Of a stretch of DNA of 64,000 nucleotides, positions 5,932 to 62,043 are shown piece by piece; the stretch's first letter is position 1; every line of letters starts with the position of its first letter. The position numbers and the translations under genes were made by a program. This stretch comes from Candidatus Eiseniibacteriota bacterium (GTDB lineage: Bacteria; Eisenbacteria; RBG-16-71-46; JABDJR01), in assembly GCA_963762255.1 (NCBI GenBank), contig CAVXKA010000002.1, positions 96,001 through 160,000 of the forward strand, in the 5' to 3' direction. The notes beneath the pieces were generated by a model. The model did not search any database, was not told the DNA's origin, and was given only the letters and a program-made list of their open reading frames with translations.

Positions 5932-6645
5932 CTAGTTGTACTGTTGCTTCACCCGTCCCCAGGTGGTTGCCTCGACCGGGGTCGGGGCTCCGCAGGGGTT
6001 CCAGCCCGACATGCAGAACCCTGCGATGCCGAGGTGGGAAGGAACCAGGCCGTCGATCCGATCTTCAGAGGCCTTGCAGTTGGCGACCTTCGCGAAGCCG
6101 GAGACCGGCCGCGTGTCGATTGCGAACTGGTCCGGGCCGTAAAGCCAAACGTTCATCGTGCCGGCGATGGCGACGACGCTGTACGGCGAGTTCGGCTCGG
6201 AGGGGGTGGTCTGACAGTTGACCAGACGGTCCCAGACGATGATGGTCCCGGTGCCTGCAGCAGGCCAATCCAGCTCGGGTCCCGCGCCGTCACCCTGGGG
6301 GAACTCGAGATCGGCGCACATATTCCAACTGTCGACGTCAATCCCGGACGCCACGTCGCCGTCGTACTCGATACCGAACTCCAAACCGGCAATGCCGGTC
6401 GAGTCGGAAGCGTTGCAGACCAGGATCCAGATGCTGTAGCCGTCCGGGTACGGCATGCAGCCGACTTCCGTGACCATGGTCTTGGCGGTCGGCGTGGGCA
6501 TGTTCTCGCAGGGGCTCTTCTGGACAATGGGGGTGACATGGACGGAGATGGCCGCCTGGTCGTTATCCCCGCCTGCCAGAGCGATGGCGGACAGCCCCAT
6601 CGTCATGAAACAGCCGAGAAGCAGTCCTATCAAAGCGCGCTTCAT
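5932..6645 (-). CDS. Secreted Cys-rich hypothetical protein with C-terminal PTPVEATTWGRVKQQY motif
   Basis: Sec signal peptide (..ALA), perfect SD TAAGGAGGT, 8 Cys in mature part, own promoter and terminator. Confidence 0.85.
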   Translation of the reverse strand: MKRALIGLLLGCFMTMGLSAIALAGGDNDQAAISVHVTPIVQKSPCENMPTPTAKTMVTEVGCMPYPDGYSIWILVCNASDSTGIAGLEFGIEYDGDVASGIDVDSWNMCADLEFPQGDGAGPELDWPAAGTGTIIVWDRLVNCQTTPSEPNSPYSVVAIAGTMNVWLYGPDQFAIDTRPVSGFAKVANCKASEDRIDGLVPSHLGIAGFCMSGWNPCGAPTPVEATTWGRVKQQYN

Positions 6646-6820
6646 CTTGTACTACCTCCTTAGCGATAGGCACGATGCGGACACACAGTTCGCGATGACA
6701 GCTCGTTCGTTCTTGAGGCGAAACACCCCACGGGTAACGCAGGAGCCGCCGGGGTGGACGCCTTTGGCCGTCAGCGAGAACCGGCGGCCACTGGGATCTG
6801 AGTCCACCTGCACCGACAAA

Positions 6821-54980: not shown

Positions 54981-57572
54981 GTGGCACGCGCGCCCAGCCC
55001 CTCGGAAACCCCGGTGATGCGTCAGTATCTTTCCTTCAAGGAGCGGCACCCGGACGCCATCCTCTTCTTCCGCATGGGCGATTTCTACGAGATGTTCTTC
55101 GCCGACGCGGAGCTCGCCGCCCGGGAACTCGGCCTCACGCTCACCTCACGCGACAAGGGGAGAGAGGGCTCGGTGCCCATGGCGGGGGTGCCGCACCACG
55201 CCGCGGAGGGCTATATCGCCCGGCTCGTGCGCAAGGGGTATCGGGTGGCGGTGTGCGAGCAGCTCGGCGATCCGGCGAAGACGCGTGGGATCGTGGACCG
55301 CGGGGTGGTCGAGGTGATCACGCCTGGCACCGCGCTCAGTGACGCGCTCGTCTCCGAGACCGTCAACAACTACGTGGCCGCCGCGCACCGCGCGCGGGAT
55401 GTGGTGGGGTTCGCCGCCGCGGACATCACGACGGGTGAGTTCTTCCTGGAGGATTTCCCACTCGAACGCTTCGAGCAGGACGTGGCCCGGCTCTCGATCG
55501 CGGAGTGGGTGGTGCCGGACGGAGAAGAGATGTTCGCGCTCCCCCGAGACGCCGCGCCCCCCGTCCGACGGCCGGGCTGGTGGTTCGACGAAACGCGGGG
55601 GCGGCGCGAGCTGGAGGCGCACTTCCGCGTGCAGAGTCTCGCCGGCTTCGACTGCCACGACCTCGGTCCGGCCGTCGGCGCGGGGGGCGCGCTTCTCGAC
55701 TACTTGCGCGAGGTGCGAGGTCCCGAGCTGCGTCACGTGGTGCGCGCGAGGCGTCTGGGCGCCCGCGACTTCATGGTGCTCGACGCCACCACGCGGCGCA
55801 ACCTCGAGCTCACCGCCTCGCTCCTCGGCGAGGGGCGCGATCTCACGCTGCTCGGCGCCATCGACCGCACGCTCACGAGCCTCGGCGCGCGCCGGCTGCG
55901 CGCGTGGCTGGAGCGCCCTCTCGTCCGGCGCGAGGCGATCGAGGCTCGGCTCGATGCGGTCGAGGAGTTGGTGAACCGGACCGAGGAGACGGAGCTTCTC
56001 GCCGAAACCCTTCGCCGGTTCCGCGATCTCGAGCGGCTGCTGGGCAAGGCGGCGTGCGGCAAGGCCTCGCCGAGGGATCTGCGGGCGCTCGGCGAGGGAG
56101 CGCTGGCCACCCCGGAACTGCGCGAGCGCCTCGGCATGTTCCGCGCCGCGGTGCTGCACGACTTCGCGACCGCTGCGCCGGACCTGTCGGCCCTCGGCCG
56201 GCGCCTCGACGAGGCCCTCGTGGACGCCCCGCCGCTCGCCGTAGGAGAGGGAGGCGTCTTCCGACCGGGCTGGAACGCGGAGCTCGACGCGCTTCGCGAC
56301 CGCTCCCGGGGGGGCAAGGACTGGATCGCGCGCCTGCAGGAACAGGAACGCCAGGCGACCGGCATCGCGACGCTCAAGGTGGGCTACAACCGGGTGTTCG
56401 GCTACTACCTCGAGGTCACCTCCGCGCAGCAGGACAAGGTGCCGCCGCACTATATCCGCAAGCAGACGCTGGTCAACGCGGAGCGCTACGTCACGCCCGA
56501 GTTGAAAGAGGAGGAGGAACGCATCCTCGGCGCCGAGGAGCGCCTTCGCGCGCTGGAGATCGAGCTCTTCGCCGCGCTGCGCAACGAGGCGGTCGATTGT
56601 GCCGGAGACATTCAGTCGGTGGCGGAGGCGGTGGGAGCTTCGGATGCGCTGCAAGGGCTGGCGCGGGCTGCCCGCGAGGGACGCTACGTCCGCCCGGAGA
56701 TCGTCGAGGAACCGGTGCTCGACCTGCGCGACGCGCGCCACCCGGTGGTGGAGCGGCTGCTGGCCGCGGGAGAGTTCGTTCCCAACGACCTCGCCCTGGA
56801 CGCCTCGGCGCGCCAGATCGCCATCATCACCGGACCCAACATGGCCGGCAAGTCCACCTTCCTGCGCCAGGCGGGCCTTCTCACCCTTCTCGCGCAGATG
56901 GGCTCGTTCGTTCCCGCCACGCGCGCGAAGGTGGGGATCGTTGACCGTGTCTTCACGCGCGTGGGCGCCTCGGACAACATCGCGCGCGGCCAGTCCACGT
57001 TCATGGTGGAGATGGAGGAGACCGCCACCATCCTCAACGCGGCCACCGGACGGAGCCTCGTCCTCCTCGACGAAGTCGGCCGCGGGACGAGCACCTACGA
57101 CGGGCTAAGCCTCGCCTGGGCGGTGACCGAACACCTTCATGAGCGGCGGGAAGGACGTCCCCGCACGCTCTTCGCCACCCATTATCATGAGCTGACCGCG
57201 CTCGGGGAGCATCTTCCGCGGGTGGTGAACCTGAACGTGCAAGTCAAAGAGTGGAACGGCAAGGTGATCTTCCTGCGGAAGATCGTCGAGGGCGCCGCCG
57301 ACAAGAGCTACGGGATCCACGTCGCCGAGCTGGCCGGCCTGCCGGCGGAAGTGGTGGCGCGCGCCAAAGAGGTGCTGGCGAAACTGGAGGAGGGGCGCTT
57401 CGCACGCACCGCGGGTGACACGCGATCGCCGGAGCCCCAGCTCACGCTTTTCGAGCCGGTCGGTCACGAACTGCTGGACGCGCTGGCCGACCTGCGACCG
57501 GAGGCGATGACCCCGCTGGACGCGTTGGCGCTTCTCACCGCGTGGAAGAAACACTATGGAGGACCTTCGTGA
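54981..57572 (+). CDS. mutS: DNA mismatch repair protein MutS
   Basis: TPVMRQY, FRMGDFYE, TGPNMAGKST, STFMVEM, LDEVGRGTST, FATHYHEL. Confidence 0.97.
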   Translation: MARAPSPSETPVMRQYLSFKERHPDAILFFRMGDFYEMFFADAELAARELGLTLTSRDKGREGSVPMAGVPHHAAEGYIARLVRKGYRVAVCEQLGDPAKTRGIVDRGVVEVITPGTALSDALVSETVNNYVAAAHRARDVVGFAAADITTGEFFLEDFPLERFEQDVARLSIAEWVVPDGEEMFALPRDAAPPVRRPGWWFDETRGRRELEAHFRVQSLAGFDCHDLGPAVGAGGALLDYLREVRGPELRHVVRARRLGARDFMVLDATTRRNLELTASLLGEGRDLTLLGAIDRTLTSLGARRLRAWLERPLVRREAIEARLDAVEELVNRTEETELLAETLRRFRDLERLLGKAACGKASPRDLRALGEGALATPELRERLGMFRAAVLHDFATAAPDLSALGRRLDEALVDAPPLAVGEGGVFRPGWNAELDALRDRSRGGKDWIARLQEQERQATGIATLKVGYNRVFGYYLEVTSAQQDKVPPHYIRKQTLVNAERYVTPELKEEEERILGAEERLRALEIELFAALRNEAVDCAGDIQSVAEAVGASDALQGLARAAREGRYVRPEIVEEPVLDLRDARHPVVERLLAAGEFVPNDLALDASARQIAIITGPNMAGKSTFLRQAGLLTLLAQMGSFVPATRAKVGIVDRVFTRVGASDNIARGQSTFMVEMEETATILNAATGRSLVLLDEVGRGTSTYDGLSLAWAVTEHLHERREGRPRTLFATHYHELTALGEHLPRVVNLNVQVKEWNGKVIFLRKIVEGAADKSYGIHVAELAGLPAEVVARAKEVLAKLEEGRFARTAGDTRSPEPQLTLFEPVGHELLDALADLRPEAMTPLDALALLTAWKKHYGGPS

Positions 57573-60121
57573 TGCGAACTCCTTGGCGATGCCGGTGGCA
57601 GACGGGGTTGGCGGCCGCGCTTGCGGGGGTGCTGGGAAGCATGTCGGTGATCGTATCGGCGAGCGCGGCTGACGCGCCCGCGCGTCTCGATTCGCGGCTT
57701 CGGCTCGCCGCGTCGCGCCACGTGGCCGCGGCGCTCGCGCCTTCCTCGAGGCAGGAGGGGGAGAGCCCGGCCCAATCTCCCCGGGTCTCGCTCTTCCTGA
57801 AAGGCGATCCCGACCTCGCAGCGCTGGACCGCCTGGGCGTTCGCCTGCGGACGCGCGTCGGCGATCTCTGGACCGCCGACGCCCCGCTCGACGCGGTGCC
57901 CGGTCTGACCCGCGTGCGCGGCCTCGCGGCGGCCTCCCTCGGCGCTCCCATGGTCACGTTGCTGGACGCCTCCGTGATCGCCGTGAACGCGGACACGCTG
58001 CGAGAGCGGGCGGGCGATGCCTGGTCGGGGCGGACCGGCGAGGGGGTTGTGGTTGGGATCGTGGACACGGGGATCGACTTCACCCACGAAGATTTCCAGC
58101 GACCCGACTGGACCACCCGGATTCTCTATCTCTGGGATCAGGATGACGTCGTCGGGCCGCCCCCGGGCCAGGAAGTCCTCACGGACGGGTACGGCACGGA
58201 ATGGACGTCCCTGCAGATCGACAACCCGGGCGTCTCGGTGCGCGCCAGAGACGAGGTGGGGCACGGGACGCGCGTGGCGGGAGTGGCCGCGGGCAACGGA
58301 CGCGCCTCCGATCTGGAAGAGCGGCGATACCAGTACGCCGGCATCGCACCGGAAGCGGACCTGATCGTGGTGAGCGTCAAGAACTTCGTGACCGACGCCG
58401 AGATCGTCGACGCGATCGGCTACATCTTTCGCCGCGCAGAACTGTTGGGGAGACCGGCGGTCGTCAACCTATCCCTCGGAACGCATTTCGGTCCGCACGA
58501 CGGCACCGGTTTTCTCGAGCAAGCCATCGACGGCCTCGTCGGTCCGGGTAGGCTCCTCGTGGCCGCCGCGGGGAACGAGGGGGACGACAGCGTTCACGCC
58601 GAGCTGCACGTGCCCGCATTCGGCGGAGACAGCGCCACGGTGGCGGTCGAAGCTCCGGCGGAAGTGGCCGTCGAACTCTTCAGCATCAACGCCTACTGTC
58701 GCCGCCCGGACTCCCTCGCCGTCACGCTGGTGAGCCCGGCGGGAAAGCGATTCGGCCCGTACCACCTGGGCGACGAGGAGGACCCGGGAAGGCTCACCGG
58801 AGAGGGAACTCTTGCTCTGCTCTATCAGGACGTCGATCCTGTGGGGAGCAACCTCGAGGTGCTCATCGATCTCAGCGATTACAATCCTTCGGGCAGCGGG
58901 ACGGTGCCTCCTCCGGCCAAGGGACTCTGGCGGGTTGTATTCACCGATCTGAACGGCGCTCCCGGAGGAGGTGAGGTCGATCTCTGGATCGCCCAGCACT
59001 ACCCGACATCCGCTCAAGCACACTGGCGGGGGCACGGCTACGATCCGACGGAGGAGATCGCGTCACCGGGTACCGCCATGCGGGTCATCACCGTCGGCTC
59101 CTTCAACAGCAAGCGCTGTTGGACCAACCCCAGCGATCAGTCGCAGTGCACAACCGCTCCCGAAGCGGTGAGCCAGATCGGGCAGGTCACGTTCTTCTCG
59201 AGCCGCGGTCCCACGCGCGACGGACGGCTGAAGCCGGAACTCTGCGCACCCGGTTTCATAGTCGCCTCGGCCTTCTCGCATCAGATGGACCCCACGTTGC
59301 CGGCGATGGGGTTGGGCCAGACCGTGGACCCCGACGGCCAGCACGCGGTCTTCGCGGGAACGAGCATCGCCGCGCCTCACGTGACCGGGGCGTTCGCGCT
59401 CCTGCTCGAGACGATGCCCACCATTACACCGGAGGAGACGATGACGCGCGTGCGCTCCTCGGTGCGCACCGACGAGTTCACCGGCCCGGTGTGGAGCGCC
59501 GCGGGAGGGTTCGGGAAGCTGGACGTGGGCCGGCTGGTCGATCCAGCGCTGGTCCCGGTGTTGGAGCGTCGCTTCCTCGTCTCGACCGGCGAAGGCGGGC
59601 TCCCGGTCCTGTCCTGGGAGGCGCTCCCCGAGGACCCGACGATCGCCTTCACGTTGCAGCGGAGCGACGGCGGTCCCGACTGGAGCGACCGCGCGTTCTT
59701 CACCGGCCCCGGCCCGCACCTCTGGCAGGAGCGGATGCCGACCCCCGACGGCACACGGTATCGGCTGCTGGGACGGACTCGCTCCGGCGAGAGCGTTCTC
59801 TGGGGGGAGACGGCCTGGTGGGGGAGCGCCCGCCAACCCGGGCTTGTCCTGGCCCCGCCGATGTCGAACCCGTTCCGCTCCACCGCCGAGGTAGCGTTCC
59901 GACTGGATGGGGCGACCGGCCCCGTGCCGCTGCGAGCGTCGATCCGCGACGCGGCGGGGCGTCTCGTTCGCCTCCTCGGTGAGGTGATGACCTTCGGAAG
60001 CGGCAGCGTGCGATGGGACGGCCGCGACGATCGCGGCACCGAGGTTCCCGCAGGGGTATATTGGCTCAGCGTGGAAGCGGGCCTCTTCGCGAGGTCTGTG
60101 AAGCTGGTTCGTTTGCCATGA
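57572..60121 (+). CDS. Secreted S8 (subtilisin-like) serine peptidase with C-terminal FlgD Ig-like domain
   Basis: VDTGID, HGTRVAG, AGTSIAAPHV; C-term NPF...AGRLVR..WDGRDD.G..V.AGVY. Confidence 0.88.
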   Translation: MRTPWRCRWQTGLAAALAGVLGSMSVIVSASAADAPARLDSRLRLAASRHVAAALAPSSRQEGESPAQSPRVSLFLKGDPDLAALDRLGVRLRTRVGDLWTADAPLDAVPGLTRVRGLAAASLGAPMVTLLDASVIAVNADTLRERAGDAWSGRTGEGVVVGIVDTGIDFTHEDFQRPDWTTRILYLWDQDDVVGPPPGQEVLTDGYGTEWTSLQIDNPGVSVRARDEVGHGTRVAGVAAGNGRASDLEERRYQYAGIAPEADLIVVSVKNFVTDAEIVDAIGYIFRRAELLGRPAVVNLSLGTHFGPHDGTGFLEQAIDGLVGPGRLLVAAAGNEGDDSVHAELHVPAFGGDSATVAVEAPAEVAVELFSINAYCRRPDSLAVTLVSPAGKRFGPYHLGDEEDPGRLTGEGTLALLYQDVDPVGSNLEVLIDLSDYNPSGSGTVPPPAKGLWRVVFTDLNGAPGGGEVDLWIAQHYPTSAQAHWRGHGYDPTEEIASPGTAMRVITVGSFNSKRCWTNPSDQSQCTTAPEAVSQIGQVTFFSSRGPTRDGRLKPELCAPGFIVASAFSHQMDPTLPAMGLGQTVDPDGQHAVFAGTSIAAPHVTGAFALLLETMPTITPEETMTRVRSSVRTDEFTGPVWSAAGGFGKLDVGRLVDPALVPVLERRFLVSTGEGGLPVLSWEALPEDPTIAFTLQRSDGGPDWSDRAFFTGPGPHLWQERMPTPDGTRYRLLGRTRSGESVLWGETAWWGSARQPGLVLAPPMSNPFRSTAEVAFRLDGATGPVPLRASIRDAAGRLVRLLGEVMTFGSGSVRWDGRDDRGTEVPAGVYWLSVEAGLFARSVKLVRLP

Positions 60122-60132
60122 ACGGAGGGGGC

Positions 60133-60775
60133 ATGATCACGCGCGTTCTTCTGGTGACGCTGGCGATGAGCGGGGCGGCGGCGGTCGCCTGGGCAGAGGC
60201 GCCCATCGTTCCCACGCCGCATATCTATCTGAGCCCCACGGCCGGGATCGCGCGTTGGGACAAGCACTCCTTCGAGAGTGCGGAGGTACCCGATCGCACA
60301 GCCCCTCTCTACGGGGGGCGAGTCGGGTACACCCCGATCGAGGCGTTCTCCGCCGAGGTCGTTCTGTTGACCGGCCGCAACGATGTCGAGGTTGGGGGCA
60401 GCTCCCATTCGGTGAGGCTCACCTCCGCCGAGGCCTCCATGCTGGTCAACTTCAAGAACCCTCATGGACACGCCGGTCTATCCATTCCTTGCGCTGGGGG
60501 CTGGAGCGTCGATTCGCAGGGGGCCCGCCGTCGTTCTTCCCGAAGCGTACGACTTCGACGATACGCATCTCAGCTTCCACCTCGGCGGGGGGGCGAAGGT
60601 GGATCTGGCCCCTCGGTGGGGAGCGCGACTCATCGTGCGCGATACGTTCTTCACCGACACCCAGGTCGAGGAGAATCGTGAGACGCAGGTGACGGTGGAC
60701 GTGGTGGAGGTGAGCGCCTCGATCGAGTACCGCATCCCATTGGGGCGTGGCGGAGGTCCGAAGCGGCTGCGGTGA
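60133..60775 (+). CDS. Outer-membrane beta-barrel protein, interrupted by +1 frameshift at CCC 60459-60461
   Basis: SD GGAGG, signal peptide, YGGRVGY in frame 1; YPFLALGAG, FHLGGG, SIEYRI in frame 2. Confidence 0.72.
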
Positions 60776-60837
60776 TTGGATCCCGCGGGCGTCGGCAAGT
60801 TGCTTTCCATCGAGATGGAGGATTTTGGGCGGCTCCA

Positions 60838-60866
60838 TTGACAGTTGGCAGGATTGCACTTAGATT
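60838..60866 (+). promoter_or_regulatory. Strong sigma70 promoter TTGACA-N17-TAGATT
   Basis: Consensus -35, 17-nt spacer; predicted start ~60873 coincides with the 5' end of the rod-shaped fold. Confidence 0.75.
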
Positions 60867-60872
60867 GAGTTG

Positions 60873-61053
60873 AACCGAACGGGACCACGCCGACTCGAAT
60901 GGGGGGTGTCGGGGTGGAGCGGAAGGGCAAGGCAGCAGCGATCAGACTCTGGCATTTCTGACCTCCTTAGCACCAGGGTTCGGTCGAAGACCCAACTGCC
61001 GCCCCGGCTCCCCACTACTTTGCTCCTTGGCTTGGTCGGTGGTTCCCTCGGTT
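60873..61053 (+). ncRNA. Candidate ~180-nt rod-shaped ncRNA (novel sRNA or divergent 6S RNA)
   Basis: End-to-end nested helices with several G-U pairs on + strand; own promoter; anti-SD apical loop. Confidence 0.6.
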
Positions 61054-61184
61054 GGACTCTGGACCCTCCCCGGATTCTTCTCCCGCGTGATGCGGGCCTG
61101 CTGTCCGCTGCCTCGCCTCATCTGATACCATCAACGATTCAGACGCAGCCCCGGATCCTCGGGCTTGGGAGCGAGTGTACCGGC

Positions 61185-61643
61185 ATGTTATATCGATGGT
61201 TCCGCCGTCCGGCGGCTTGGCTTGCGGTCGTCGGCCTGCTGGCGCAGACCGCGTGCGCCGGGGGTGCCAAGACCCTGAACCTGGCCGACTTGGCCGATCC
61301 CAAGCCGGCCAGCGCCTATCTCGTTTTCCTGCGTGACGGAACTGCCCGAACCCTCATCTCTCTTCATCGGGAGGGAGATTGGCTCCTGGGCACCGAGCGA
61401 ATCACCGTGACGCAGACCCTCGGCGAGGGGGAGACCGTCCGCACGAACGTCACCAATCGCTATCAGGATGTGCGGCTTCCCATGGCGGAGGTGGAACGCG
61501 TCGACGCCGAGGGGAGTAAGGGGATGGACGGGAGCCTGTTCATGGCCGCCGGAGGCCTTATGCTCGGGGTGGCGGCTTTCATCCTCCTCACCCAGGATTC
61601 CGACCCGGCTTCCTCCGATGGGGGAGGCGTCAAGACAAAATGA
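61185..61643 (+). CDS. Hypothetical lipoprotein with C-terminal hydrophobic helix
   Basis: Lipobox-like QTAC after hydrophobic stretch; C-terminal TM segment. Confidence 0.65.
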   Translation: MLYRWFRRPAAWLAVVGLLAQTACAGGAKTLNLADLADPKPASAYLVFLRDGTARTLISLHREGDWLLGTERITVTQTLGEGETVRTNVTNRYQDVRLPMAEVERVDAEGSKGMDGSLFMAAGGLMLGVAAFILLTQDSDPASSDGGGVKTK

Positions 61644-61710
61644 AGCGGGCCGTCGGCGGCCATCACAAAGACATCAGCTTTGCAGTCAACTGGAAGGAGA
61701 TCGCTCTAGA

Positions 61711-62043
61711 ATGGGAAAGAACACGGTAGAGCTCACGGACGCCAACTTCGCCACGACGGTGGAGCAGTCTGAAGTGCCGGTGATGGTGGATTTCTGGGCG
61801 CCGTGGTGCGGGCCCTGCCGACTCGTCGGCCCCATCGTCGAGGAACTGGCCGAGACGTACACGGGCCGGTTGCAGGTGGGGAAGCTGAACACCGACGACA
61901 ACCCCGCGGTGGCCTCGCAGTTCAACATTCGCTCCATTCCCACGATCCTCTTCTTCAAGAACGGCCAGGTGGTGGATCACGTCGTGGGTGCGGTTCCCCG
62001 CGAGAAGCTGCAGAAGAAGGTGGATGAGATTCTGGGCGCCTGA
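61711..62043 (+). CDS. trxA: Thioredoxin
   Basis: DFWAPWCGPC, IRSIPT; SD AAGGAG. Confidence 0.96.
   Translation: MGKNTVELTDANFATTVEQSEVPVMVDFWAPWCGPCRLVGPIVEELAETYTGRLQVGKLNTDDNPAVASQFNIRSIPTILFFKNGQVVDHVVGAVPREKLQKKVDEILGA

Follow-up and report, generated by a model that had tools for sequence, protein, structure and literature searches.

The 64,000-nucleotide stretch of Eisenbacteria DNA analysed here (the window) carries on its + strand a small non-coding RNA gene, about 150-210 nt long, with its own strong sigma-70-type promoter. The RNA contains a 114-nt hairpin whose structure, judged from its aligned homologues, is under selection, and the 20-nt loop at the tip of the hairpin displays the anti-Shine-Dalgarno (anti-SD) sequence found at the 3' end of 16S rRNA. 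On balance, the RNA is probably a trans-acting small RNA (sRNA) that is independent of Hfq and whose loop pairs with Shine-Dalgarno (SD) regions, thereby occluding the ribosome-binding sites (RBSs) of the mRNAs concerned.

Promoter, hairpin and loop

The gene can be divided into the following parts:

60838..60866, + strand: sigma-70-type promoter (TTGACA at 60838-43, a 17-nt spacer, TAGATT at 60861-66)
60873..60899, + strand: 5' leader, running to the hairpin from a start that the -10 box places at ~60873
60900..61013, + strand: conserved core hairpin, long and imperfect, 114 nt
60902-60917/60999-61013, + strand: basal helix of the core
60921-60926/60992-60997, + strand: middle helix of the core
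60931..60939, + strand: unpaired stretch GGCAGCAGC, on the 5' side of the internal loop under the apical helix
60940-60952/60973-60985, + strand: apical helix of the core
60953..60972, + strand: 20-nt apical loop CATTTCTGACCTCCTTAGCA (= CAUUUCUGACCUCCUUAGCA)
60960-60971, + strand: conserved seed GACCUCCUUAGC, the 3' half of the loop
61014..61053, + strand: 3' tail, with the pyrimidine-rich ACUACUUUGCUCC adjoining the hairpin, then GTCGG, TGGTTCC and TCGGTT, the partners of the leader
61058..61084, + strand: weak terminator-like hairpin UCUGGACCCUCCCCGGA followed by UUCUUCUCCC, a possible 3' end

The TTGACA-N17-TAGATT promoter, which an earlier note on this DNA had predicted from the window alone, is present and is the sole site found in a promoter scan of 60400-61400, where shuffled sequences lead one to expect 0.1. 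It is also conserved: TTGAC(A/G)-N17-TAnnnT lies 5' of the RNA in 13 of 14 homologues (the exception is M162), and the distance from promoter to hairpin is 31-33 nt in nine of the 11 promoter-bearing sequences of the f1 type, f1 being the family to which the window's genome (G000) belongs. The leader carries the conserved CCACGCCGAC at 60885-60894, and its motif CCACRCCGR is kept in most f1 sequences. At the other end the evidence is less distinct. A terminator scan gave one hit against 0.9 expected, so that the hairpin at 61058..61084 is not significant alone; if it is the 3' end, a length of ~205-210 nt is possible.

Folded alone, the + strand of 60873-61053 reaches -79.5 kcal/mol (z = -1.74; 12 of 200 shuffles are as stable), and the - strand reaches -69.0 kcal/mol (z = -0.42). 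In GC-rich DNA a single-sequence z of -1.74 is weakly above chance, and the case for the structure therefore rests on comparison. RNAalifold, applied to the f1 sequences, returns a single long hairpin. In a MAFFT alignment of 12 sequences (A2), 91.9% of the cells are paired over the 30 pairs scored, and 10 of these pairs show changes on both sides (31 cells). None of 500 shuffles did as well in paired share, cell count or covariation score, and seven did so in pair count; sliding the 3' partners by 1-3 columns lowers pairing to 40-58%. The apical helix holds most of the covariation (7 of its 12 pairs) and, when the two genomes of the sister family f2 (G008 and G009, same order) are added, eight of 11 apical pairs are compensated.

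The alignment also settles the strand. A U-G pair at A2 columns 54/141 is kept in 11 of the 12 sequences, and conserved U-G pairs would become A-C if read on the - strand; therefore the + strand is the RNA, as the earlier note had argued from the G-U pairs of the window, and the promoter points the same way. In addition, two substitutions seen in contigs from the RNA libraries, G>A at 60945 and at 61001, convert G-U to A-U pairs. These data bear on a reading in which the - strand encodes a small protein, the loop read backwards being a perfect RBS (UAAGGAGGU, spacer, AUG) ahead of a 31-codon frame. The - strand of the window does read TAAGGAGGTCAGAAATG, with the ATG in frame in the open reading frame (ORF) 60860..61015(-) and 31 codons left. 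However, a start codon follows the SD by 3-15 nt in two of 12 homologues, the changes in the stem are compensatory and not codon-like, and both the G-U pairs and the conserved promoter indicate the + strand. The small ORF was rejected as a family-wide feature on the start-codon count, and a protein gene here is extremely improbable. By the same count, the CAU of the loop, regarded earlier as an anti-AUG, is not conserved.

All the helices from which the earlier note had assembled an end-to-end rod are in place in the window: AACCGA/TCGGTT (60873-78/61048-53), GGGACCA/TGGTTCC, CCGAC/GTCGG, TGGGGG/TCCCCA and CGATC/GGTCG, together with GTCGGGGTGG/CCGCCCCGGC and GACTCTGG/CCAGGGTT. The minimum-free-energy fold of the window pairs the leader with the 3' tail. 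The rod itself stands for the window and for some lineages only. The z-score of the leader-tail duplex is -1.66 in the window and -3.33 in G004, and in the nine further sequences scored (G001 left out) it lies between -0.80 and +2.34; most relatives have duplex z-scores close to 0 for the three outer helices. Judged by eye, leader-tail closure persists in G001 and M167 with compensating changes, and the f2 RNAs close with a different, clear stem, GUGAGGCGCCG/CGGCGCCUCAC. Going by these sequences, the closed rod recurs among lineages but is not a feature of the family-wide alignment. The GGAGC/GCTCC pseudoknot or alternative helix, also proposed earlier, occurs at that place in the window only and has been set aside.

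No known RNA family matches the RNA. With Rfam 15 at the gathering score, the whole window yields two tRNAs only, with no match to the signal recognition particle (SRP) RNA (RF00169), and at E<=10 the segment 60700-61250 yields chance matches only (HOXA11-AS1_2, mir-1236 and v-snoRNA-1; all E>1). This search bears directly on the suggestion that the RNA is a divergent 6S RNA binding RNA polymerase. 6S RNA has a large central bubble between its closing and terminal stems, and there are usually one or two per genome. A size of ~180 nt and the rod-like fold in the window are what the RNA shares with it. But even at E<=10 RF00013 fails to match 60700-61250, closure of the rod is not conserved, and the consensus fold has no large central bubble; it is a single long hairpin whose internal loops are small and asymmetric and whose terminal loop has 20 nt. 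Moreover, the genome has a 6S RNA of its own at C2:243811-243989 (87.3 bits, against an RF00013 gathering score of 46.4 bits) and its own SRP RNA at C3:338012-338111 (RF00169, 67.4 bits); since both lie elsewhere, the 6S reading fails, and the chance that it is right is minute. A second 6S match in G000, C1:103435-103588 (+), scores 49.6 bits, just above the cut-off, and two 6S RNAs may be present.

Conservation is higher in the unpaired loop than in the co-varying stems that flank it, as is the case for a seed. GACCTCCTTA is invariant in all eight f1 genomes, every one of which was found without using the motif as a pattern; CCTCCTTAGC is present in 13 of 14 sequences, f2 included (G001 has AAC for AGC), and CCUCCUUAGC is likewise invariant in 13 of the 14. 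CCUCC is preceded by GA in f1 and by GG or AG in f2. The mimicry of the 16S 3' end that had been noticed in the window is borne out, and the anti-SD sequence is conserved: the loop and the 3' end of the G000 16S rRNA (GGAUCACCUCCUUUCUAAUGG; gene at C2:815456-817011, far from the sRNA gene) have the eight nucleotides ACCUCCUU in common. Their flanks are unlike (GAUC-ACCUCCUU-UCU in 16S vs UCUG-ACCUCCUU-AGC in the loop). A loop containing ACCUCCUU would therefore compete for the same mRNA sequences as the 16S tail. The second unpaired stretch, GGCAGCAGC, is invariant in the eight f1 genomes, none of which was found by means of this motif; its f2 counterpart reads GGCACCGAC.

Distribution and presence in RNA libraries

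A homologue search, which the earlier note had recommended, reveals a conserved RNA 5' of lipoprotein-thioredoxin genes in f1 and f2. When 60800-61184 is compared by blastn with 60 relatives, the same locus is found in all seven f1 genomes (E 3.5e-34 to 3.5e-4), and there is no convincing match outside f1 among the 60. A covariance model of the 114-nt core (R1) finds a single copy in G000 and in each of six sampled f1 genomes (83-116 bits). A further 144 genomes of the phylum, among them both f2 genomes and the unpublished genome G054, gave no R1 match. The diverged f2 homologues were found by synteny, 5' of the lipoprotein orthologue in G008 and G009. A second model (R2), covering the apical part and built on 14 sequences, was run over 151 genomes of the class. 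Each of the 10 genomes of the order has one copy, at E<=6.3e-7; among the 141 other class genomes the best match has E = 0.023, and no RNA was found. Outside the RNA loci of the order R2 gives 29 weak matches (E 0.023-0.99), and the 12 that were inspected are coding sequence without loop motif or promoter, several of them the same gene in different genomes. As far as these sequence searches reach, the RNA is confined to one order, with one copy per genome (10/10).

Pattern scans add a few further homologues. In metagenome contigs, seven loci were found, of which four are homologues (92.6-111.8 bits) and three are not; the pattern required the loop sequence, and the four therefore give no independent evidence on loop conservation. 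In genome contigs, the pattern GGCAGCAG-N15-40-GACCTCCTTA gave at least 119 stretches. When R1 was run over 141 loci (the 119 pattern stretches listed and 22 weak blastn loci), L065 and L094, both public Candidatus Eisenbacteria records, alone scored high (110-115 bits); L128 (21.5 bits) and L017 (18.2 bits) score low and are not among the high-scoring homologues. The 45-nt matches in Acidobacteriota (L044, L046, L067, L078, L082, L087, L104, L125 and L129) were discarded as unrelated to the RNA; this stretch is conserved and lies within a protein-coding gene of Bryobacterales and Solibacteraceae, on the antisense strand.

Three metatranscriptome runs contain small word shares of 60600-61400. 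Run X3, from soil, gives a single contig of 180 nt, which coincides exactly with 60897-61077; no X3 contig lies on the remainder of the 801 bases. Run X1, from ice and from a different study, gives a 277-nt contig (60908-61184) and contigs over the upstream outer membrane protein (OMP) gene (60600-60720); neither run has a contig on 60721-60896. Although of low depth, giving neither ends nor strand and open to DNA carry-over, the X1 and X3 contigs fit a transcript that starts from the predicted promoter and reaches at least 61077. The contig of run X2 covers 61262-61400 only, within the lipoprotein gene, and is uninformative on the RNA; run X7 has no contig on the stretch 60600-61400.

Proposed trans pairing and its alternatives

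The mechanism that we consider probable is as follows. The RNA would fold as a long GC-rich hairpin, with leader-tail pairing closing the rod in some lineages, and the 20-nt loop would be held open by the hairpin. With the same sense as the 16S anti-SD tail, the 3' half of the loop would pair in trans and without Hfq with AAGGAGGU-type SD regions of a subset of mRNAs, and this pairing would bar the 30S subunit from those mRNAs and lower their translation. The best candidate targets would be lineage-specific small secreted proteins with an [ST]WGx[IVL]K end tag. Trans action is favoured to this degree because the 93.6%-complete genome yielded no Hfq gene and because NfeR1, an Hfq-independent sRNA of rhizobia, uses an anti-SD seed, displayed in a long open loop on a stable stem, to silence its targets (PMC10746234). 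In the earlier note the RNA was proposed to mask strong RBSs in trans; a promoter-driven structured RNA, a conserved anti-SD loop and a candidate target are indeed present. The evidence establishes the gene with its promoter, structure and conservation, and its presence in RNA libraries, while trans action itself, repression and the identity of the targets are inferred.

The leading candidate target comes from a ranking of loop duplex energies over 3,490 ATG starts in G000 that have an SD core and an ORF of at least 100 aa, the start-site calls being crude; the mean is -14.5 kcal/mol, with a standard deviation of 3.4. Rank 2 is the gene for a 234-aa secreted protein, C3:688188-688892(-), at -29.5 kcal/mol, with 12 bp of the predicted duplex covering the SD and 5 bp the AUG; the frame in rank 1 is rich in arginine and has a non-coding appearance. 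An exact match to the 12-mer complement is found in G000 at the 234-aa gene and, apart from the RNA gene itself, nowhere else. The complement of the loop (SD, spacer, AUG), to which the earlier note had drawn attention, thus matches a real start region in this genome. RBS sites with at least 11 contiguous complementary nucleotides number three, and all are in the [ST]WGx[IVL]K tag family. One of the candidate targets lies in the window:

5932..6664, - strand: candidate target, a 237-aa secreted protein (gene at 5932-6645) with the C-terminal sequence TTWGRVKQQYN and the RBS CGCUAAGGAGGUA

This RBS is complementary to the loop over 11 nt (-23.9 kcal/mol), and on this complementarity the gene is put forward as a candidate trans target. 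In all, 53 G000 frames end in [ST]WGx[IVL]K plus 1-8 residues (typically TTWGRIKxLY), most of them 190-250 aa long with a signal peptide; examples are C3:688188-688892(-), window 5932-6645(-), C3:652179(-) and C3:651217(-). Homologues of the tag proteins are also found in the class families f8 and f10. No family was matched by the 234-aa protein in NCBIfam or Pfam, or by the 237-aa protein in Pfam. [ST]WGx[IVL]K looks like an undescribed C-terminal sorting tag.

The RBS of the best orthologue of the 234-aa protein varies with the loop. It reads GGAGGUC in seven of eight f1 genomes (GGGGGUC in G003), where the loop has GA-CCUCC, and GGAGGUU in the two f2 genomes, whose loops have GG/AG-CCUCC; since the f2 sRNA has GG or AG for GA and the orthologue RBS is GGAGGUU, loop and RBS can still pair. 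Families f8 and f10 are without the RNA; of their 12 homologues, eight have the 16S-optimal GGAGGUG and none has GGAGGUY. A more specific proposal is that the RNA is a dedicated translational gate for the [ST]WGx[IVL]K secreted family, its seed and the RBSs having co-evolved off GGAGGUG (to GGAGGUC in f1 and GGAGGUU in f2). We regard this as rather unlikely; if true, the RNA of these uncultured, Hfq-less bacteria would be a direct competitor of the 16S tail for its own private set of SD sequences.

Several observations weigh against trans pairing with these targets. The association between RBS and RNA presence amounts to about one evolutionary event and shared ancestry could therefore explain it, and GGAGGUC is in any case common in G000 (100 of 337 GGAGGU RBS-like sites). 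Outside the RNA gene, the exact 12-mer complement is found in G000 and G002 only. Sites within one mismatch of it are fewer than those of the reversed control in seven of eight genomes and equal in G002, so that there is no genome-wide enrichment of loop-complementary sites in these eight genomes. As regards the transcript, no clear intrinsic terminator is conserved among the homologues, the RNA-library contigs have the limits given above, and that of X1 reaches 61184, the last base before the lipoprotein ATG. Finally, the RNA stays beside the lipoprotein-thioredoxin pair even where the upstream gene differs, which fits a cis role.

Other candidate targets were rejected. A 527-aa FMN-enzyme-like gene with CGCUAAGGAGG is limited to genus g1 (two of 10 genomes) and therefore cannot be a conserved target. 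A 99%-identical copy of its last 187 residues lies ~3 kb from the full gene, at C2:1376340-1376900 (-), and is a partial duplication or an assembly artefact. The neighbouring genes are average as targets, at -14.2 kcal/mol for the lipoprotein and -14.7 kcal/mol for the OMP.

That complementary sites are in no genome-wide excess would also be expected if the partner of the loop were a protein. The RNA would then be a decoy that mimics the 16S 3' tail and titrates a tail-recognising protein (a maturation factor, ribosomal protein or nuclease), with the invariant GGCAGCAGC as a second contact. Some 11-12 nucleotides of the loop do not vary, which exceeds what a generic SD partner would require, and GGCAGCAGC is a second invariant unpaired stretch that has no predicted RNA partner. 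On the other hand, identity to the genome's own 16S tail extends over only the 8 nt of ACCUCCUU, with different flanks, the locus has no linked gene for a candidate protein, and the two bases 5' of CCUCC vary by family in step with the candidate mRNA. We consider a protein decoy quite improbable.

The location of the gene raises a different alternative. Downstream of the RNA lie:

61119..61131, + strand: possible extended -10 element (TGnTACCAT) CATCTGATACCAT, a candidate separate promoter of the lipoprotein gene, identified by eye
61185..61643, + strand: lipoprotein-like gene, 152 aa, with a signal peptide ending in Cys and no Pfam/NCBIfam family
within 61468-62043, + strand: thioredoxin gene, then genes for a methyltransferase and BshC

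The gene order in f1 is S8 peptidase, beta-barrel OMP, RNA, lipoprotein, thioredoxin, methyltransferase; by tblastn the peptidase and the OMP are present at seven of seven f1 loci and the three downstream genes at six, because the G005 contig is cut. In both f2 genomes, MutS lies upstream instead of the OMP, with the lipoprotein and thioredoxin still downstream. The main argument for a cis-acting leader is this constant position: the RNA, always 5' of the lipoprotein-thioredoxin genes and on the same strand in both families despite the differing upstream gene, would be the 5' part of their mRNA, or processed from it, and would control read-through or translation. The X1 contig, spanning 60908-61184, and the lack of a conserved strong terminator also agree with such a role. 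A possible mechanism is that CCACRCCGR in the leader pairs alternatively with the basal helix, on its 5' strand; this motif could pair with GUCGGGGUGG in 85.6% of cells, against 30-55% in slid controls. The helix with GUCGGGGUGG, however, shows no covariation (198 of 500 shuffles score as high) and is absent from f2. Further, a separate promoter-like element lies between RNA and gene in both families: a -10-like TGnTAC(C/G)AT in f1, reading CATCTGnTACCAT in G000, G001, G005, G006, G007 and M163, CATCTGCTACGAT in M167 and CTTCTGCTACGAT in G004, and TTGAAT-N16-TA(A/G)TCT in f2. The promoter scan did not call the element at 61119..61131, which has no -35 box. The lipoprotein gene has no SD at normal spacing, the duplex of the loop with its start region (-14.2 kcal/mol) is no better than the genome mean (-14.5), and the X3 contig ends at 61077. 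Taken together, a cis-acting leader appears unlikely, and a trans-acting sRNA is the reading that we prefer.

Some features of the surroundings may be noted in their own right. Short motifs, which may belong to a promoter or the 5' UTR, are conserved between 61100 and 61184, and at the corresponding place in L002-L008, L211 and L212: CTGTCC, CATCTGnTACCAT and then GGGCTTG(G/A), the last ~20-25 nt before the lipoprotein ATG; GGGCTTG is also present in the f2 genome G009. The beta-barrel OMP gene (window 60133-60775, +) is split over two frames near 60455-60465, running in the frame 60013..60681 to ~60459 and then in 60464..60775; G001 has both parts in one frame, and the split is a frameshift (pseudogene) or an assembly error. 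Its likely true start is the ATG at 60133, after GGAGGGGG. The S8 subtilase (window 57542-60121, +) has a C-terminal FlgD Ig-like domain (PF13860, 31.8 bits), a kind of domain often used as a secretion tag.

Comparison with known regulatory RNAs

In the part of the literature on Eisenbacteria that was examined, no regulatory RNA is described from this candidate phylum. With its conserved promoter, its structure backed by covariation, its contigs in RNA libraries and its lack of an Rfam family, the RNA would be a well-supported first regulatory RNA of Eisenbacteria. If the candidate regulon is true, the RNA would also be linked to a large unannotated family of tagged secreted proteins, with a testable co-evolution of seed and RBS.

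The closest likeness within the cell is to the 16S 3' tail, which has ACCUCCUU in common with the loop; the flanks differ, and the sRNA is a separate promoter-driven gene. To 6S RNA the likeness is one of length and of the rod-like fold in the window, and the RF00013 model is not matched. The RsaE/RoxS RNAs of Firmicutes are conserved sRNAs whose C-rich unpaired regions pair with G-rich SD sequences and for which Hfq is not needed. They are shorter, have several C-rich motifs and control a central-metabolism regulon, unlike the Eisenbacteria RNA, which belongs to a different family without an Rfam match, has a seed that copies the 16S anti-SD over 8 nt, and has a candidate regulon of secreted proteins.

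A closer parallel is found in rhizobia. NfeR1/alpha-r14 and the related AbcR1/2 are trans-acting sRNAs with an ultraconserved anti-SD motif, CCUCCUCCC, in unpaired loops and with variable stems; they block ribosome-binding sites by base pairing, NfeR1 is Hfq-independent, and alpha-r14/NfeR1 has three hairpins with CCUCCUCCC in each loop, the motifs being redundant (PMC10746234). The Eisenbacteria RNA is similar in its co-varying stem, its invariant CCUCC loop and the fact that no Hfq gene was found in the genome. It differs in having one loop on one 114-nt hairpin, the motif CCUCCUUAGC and no Rfam match, and in coming from another phylum. The RNA is a new family working by a known principle, and because the mechanism is of a known kind the finding is solid and should not surprise a specialist. 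The parallel with rhizobial NfeR1 suggests convergent evolution of a loop-displayed anti-SD sequence as a seed, here in an organism without detectable Hfq.

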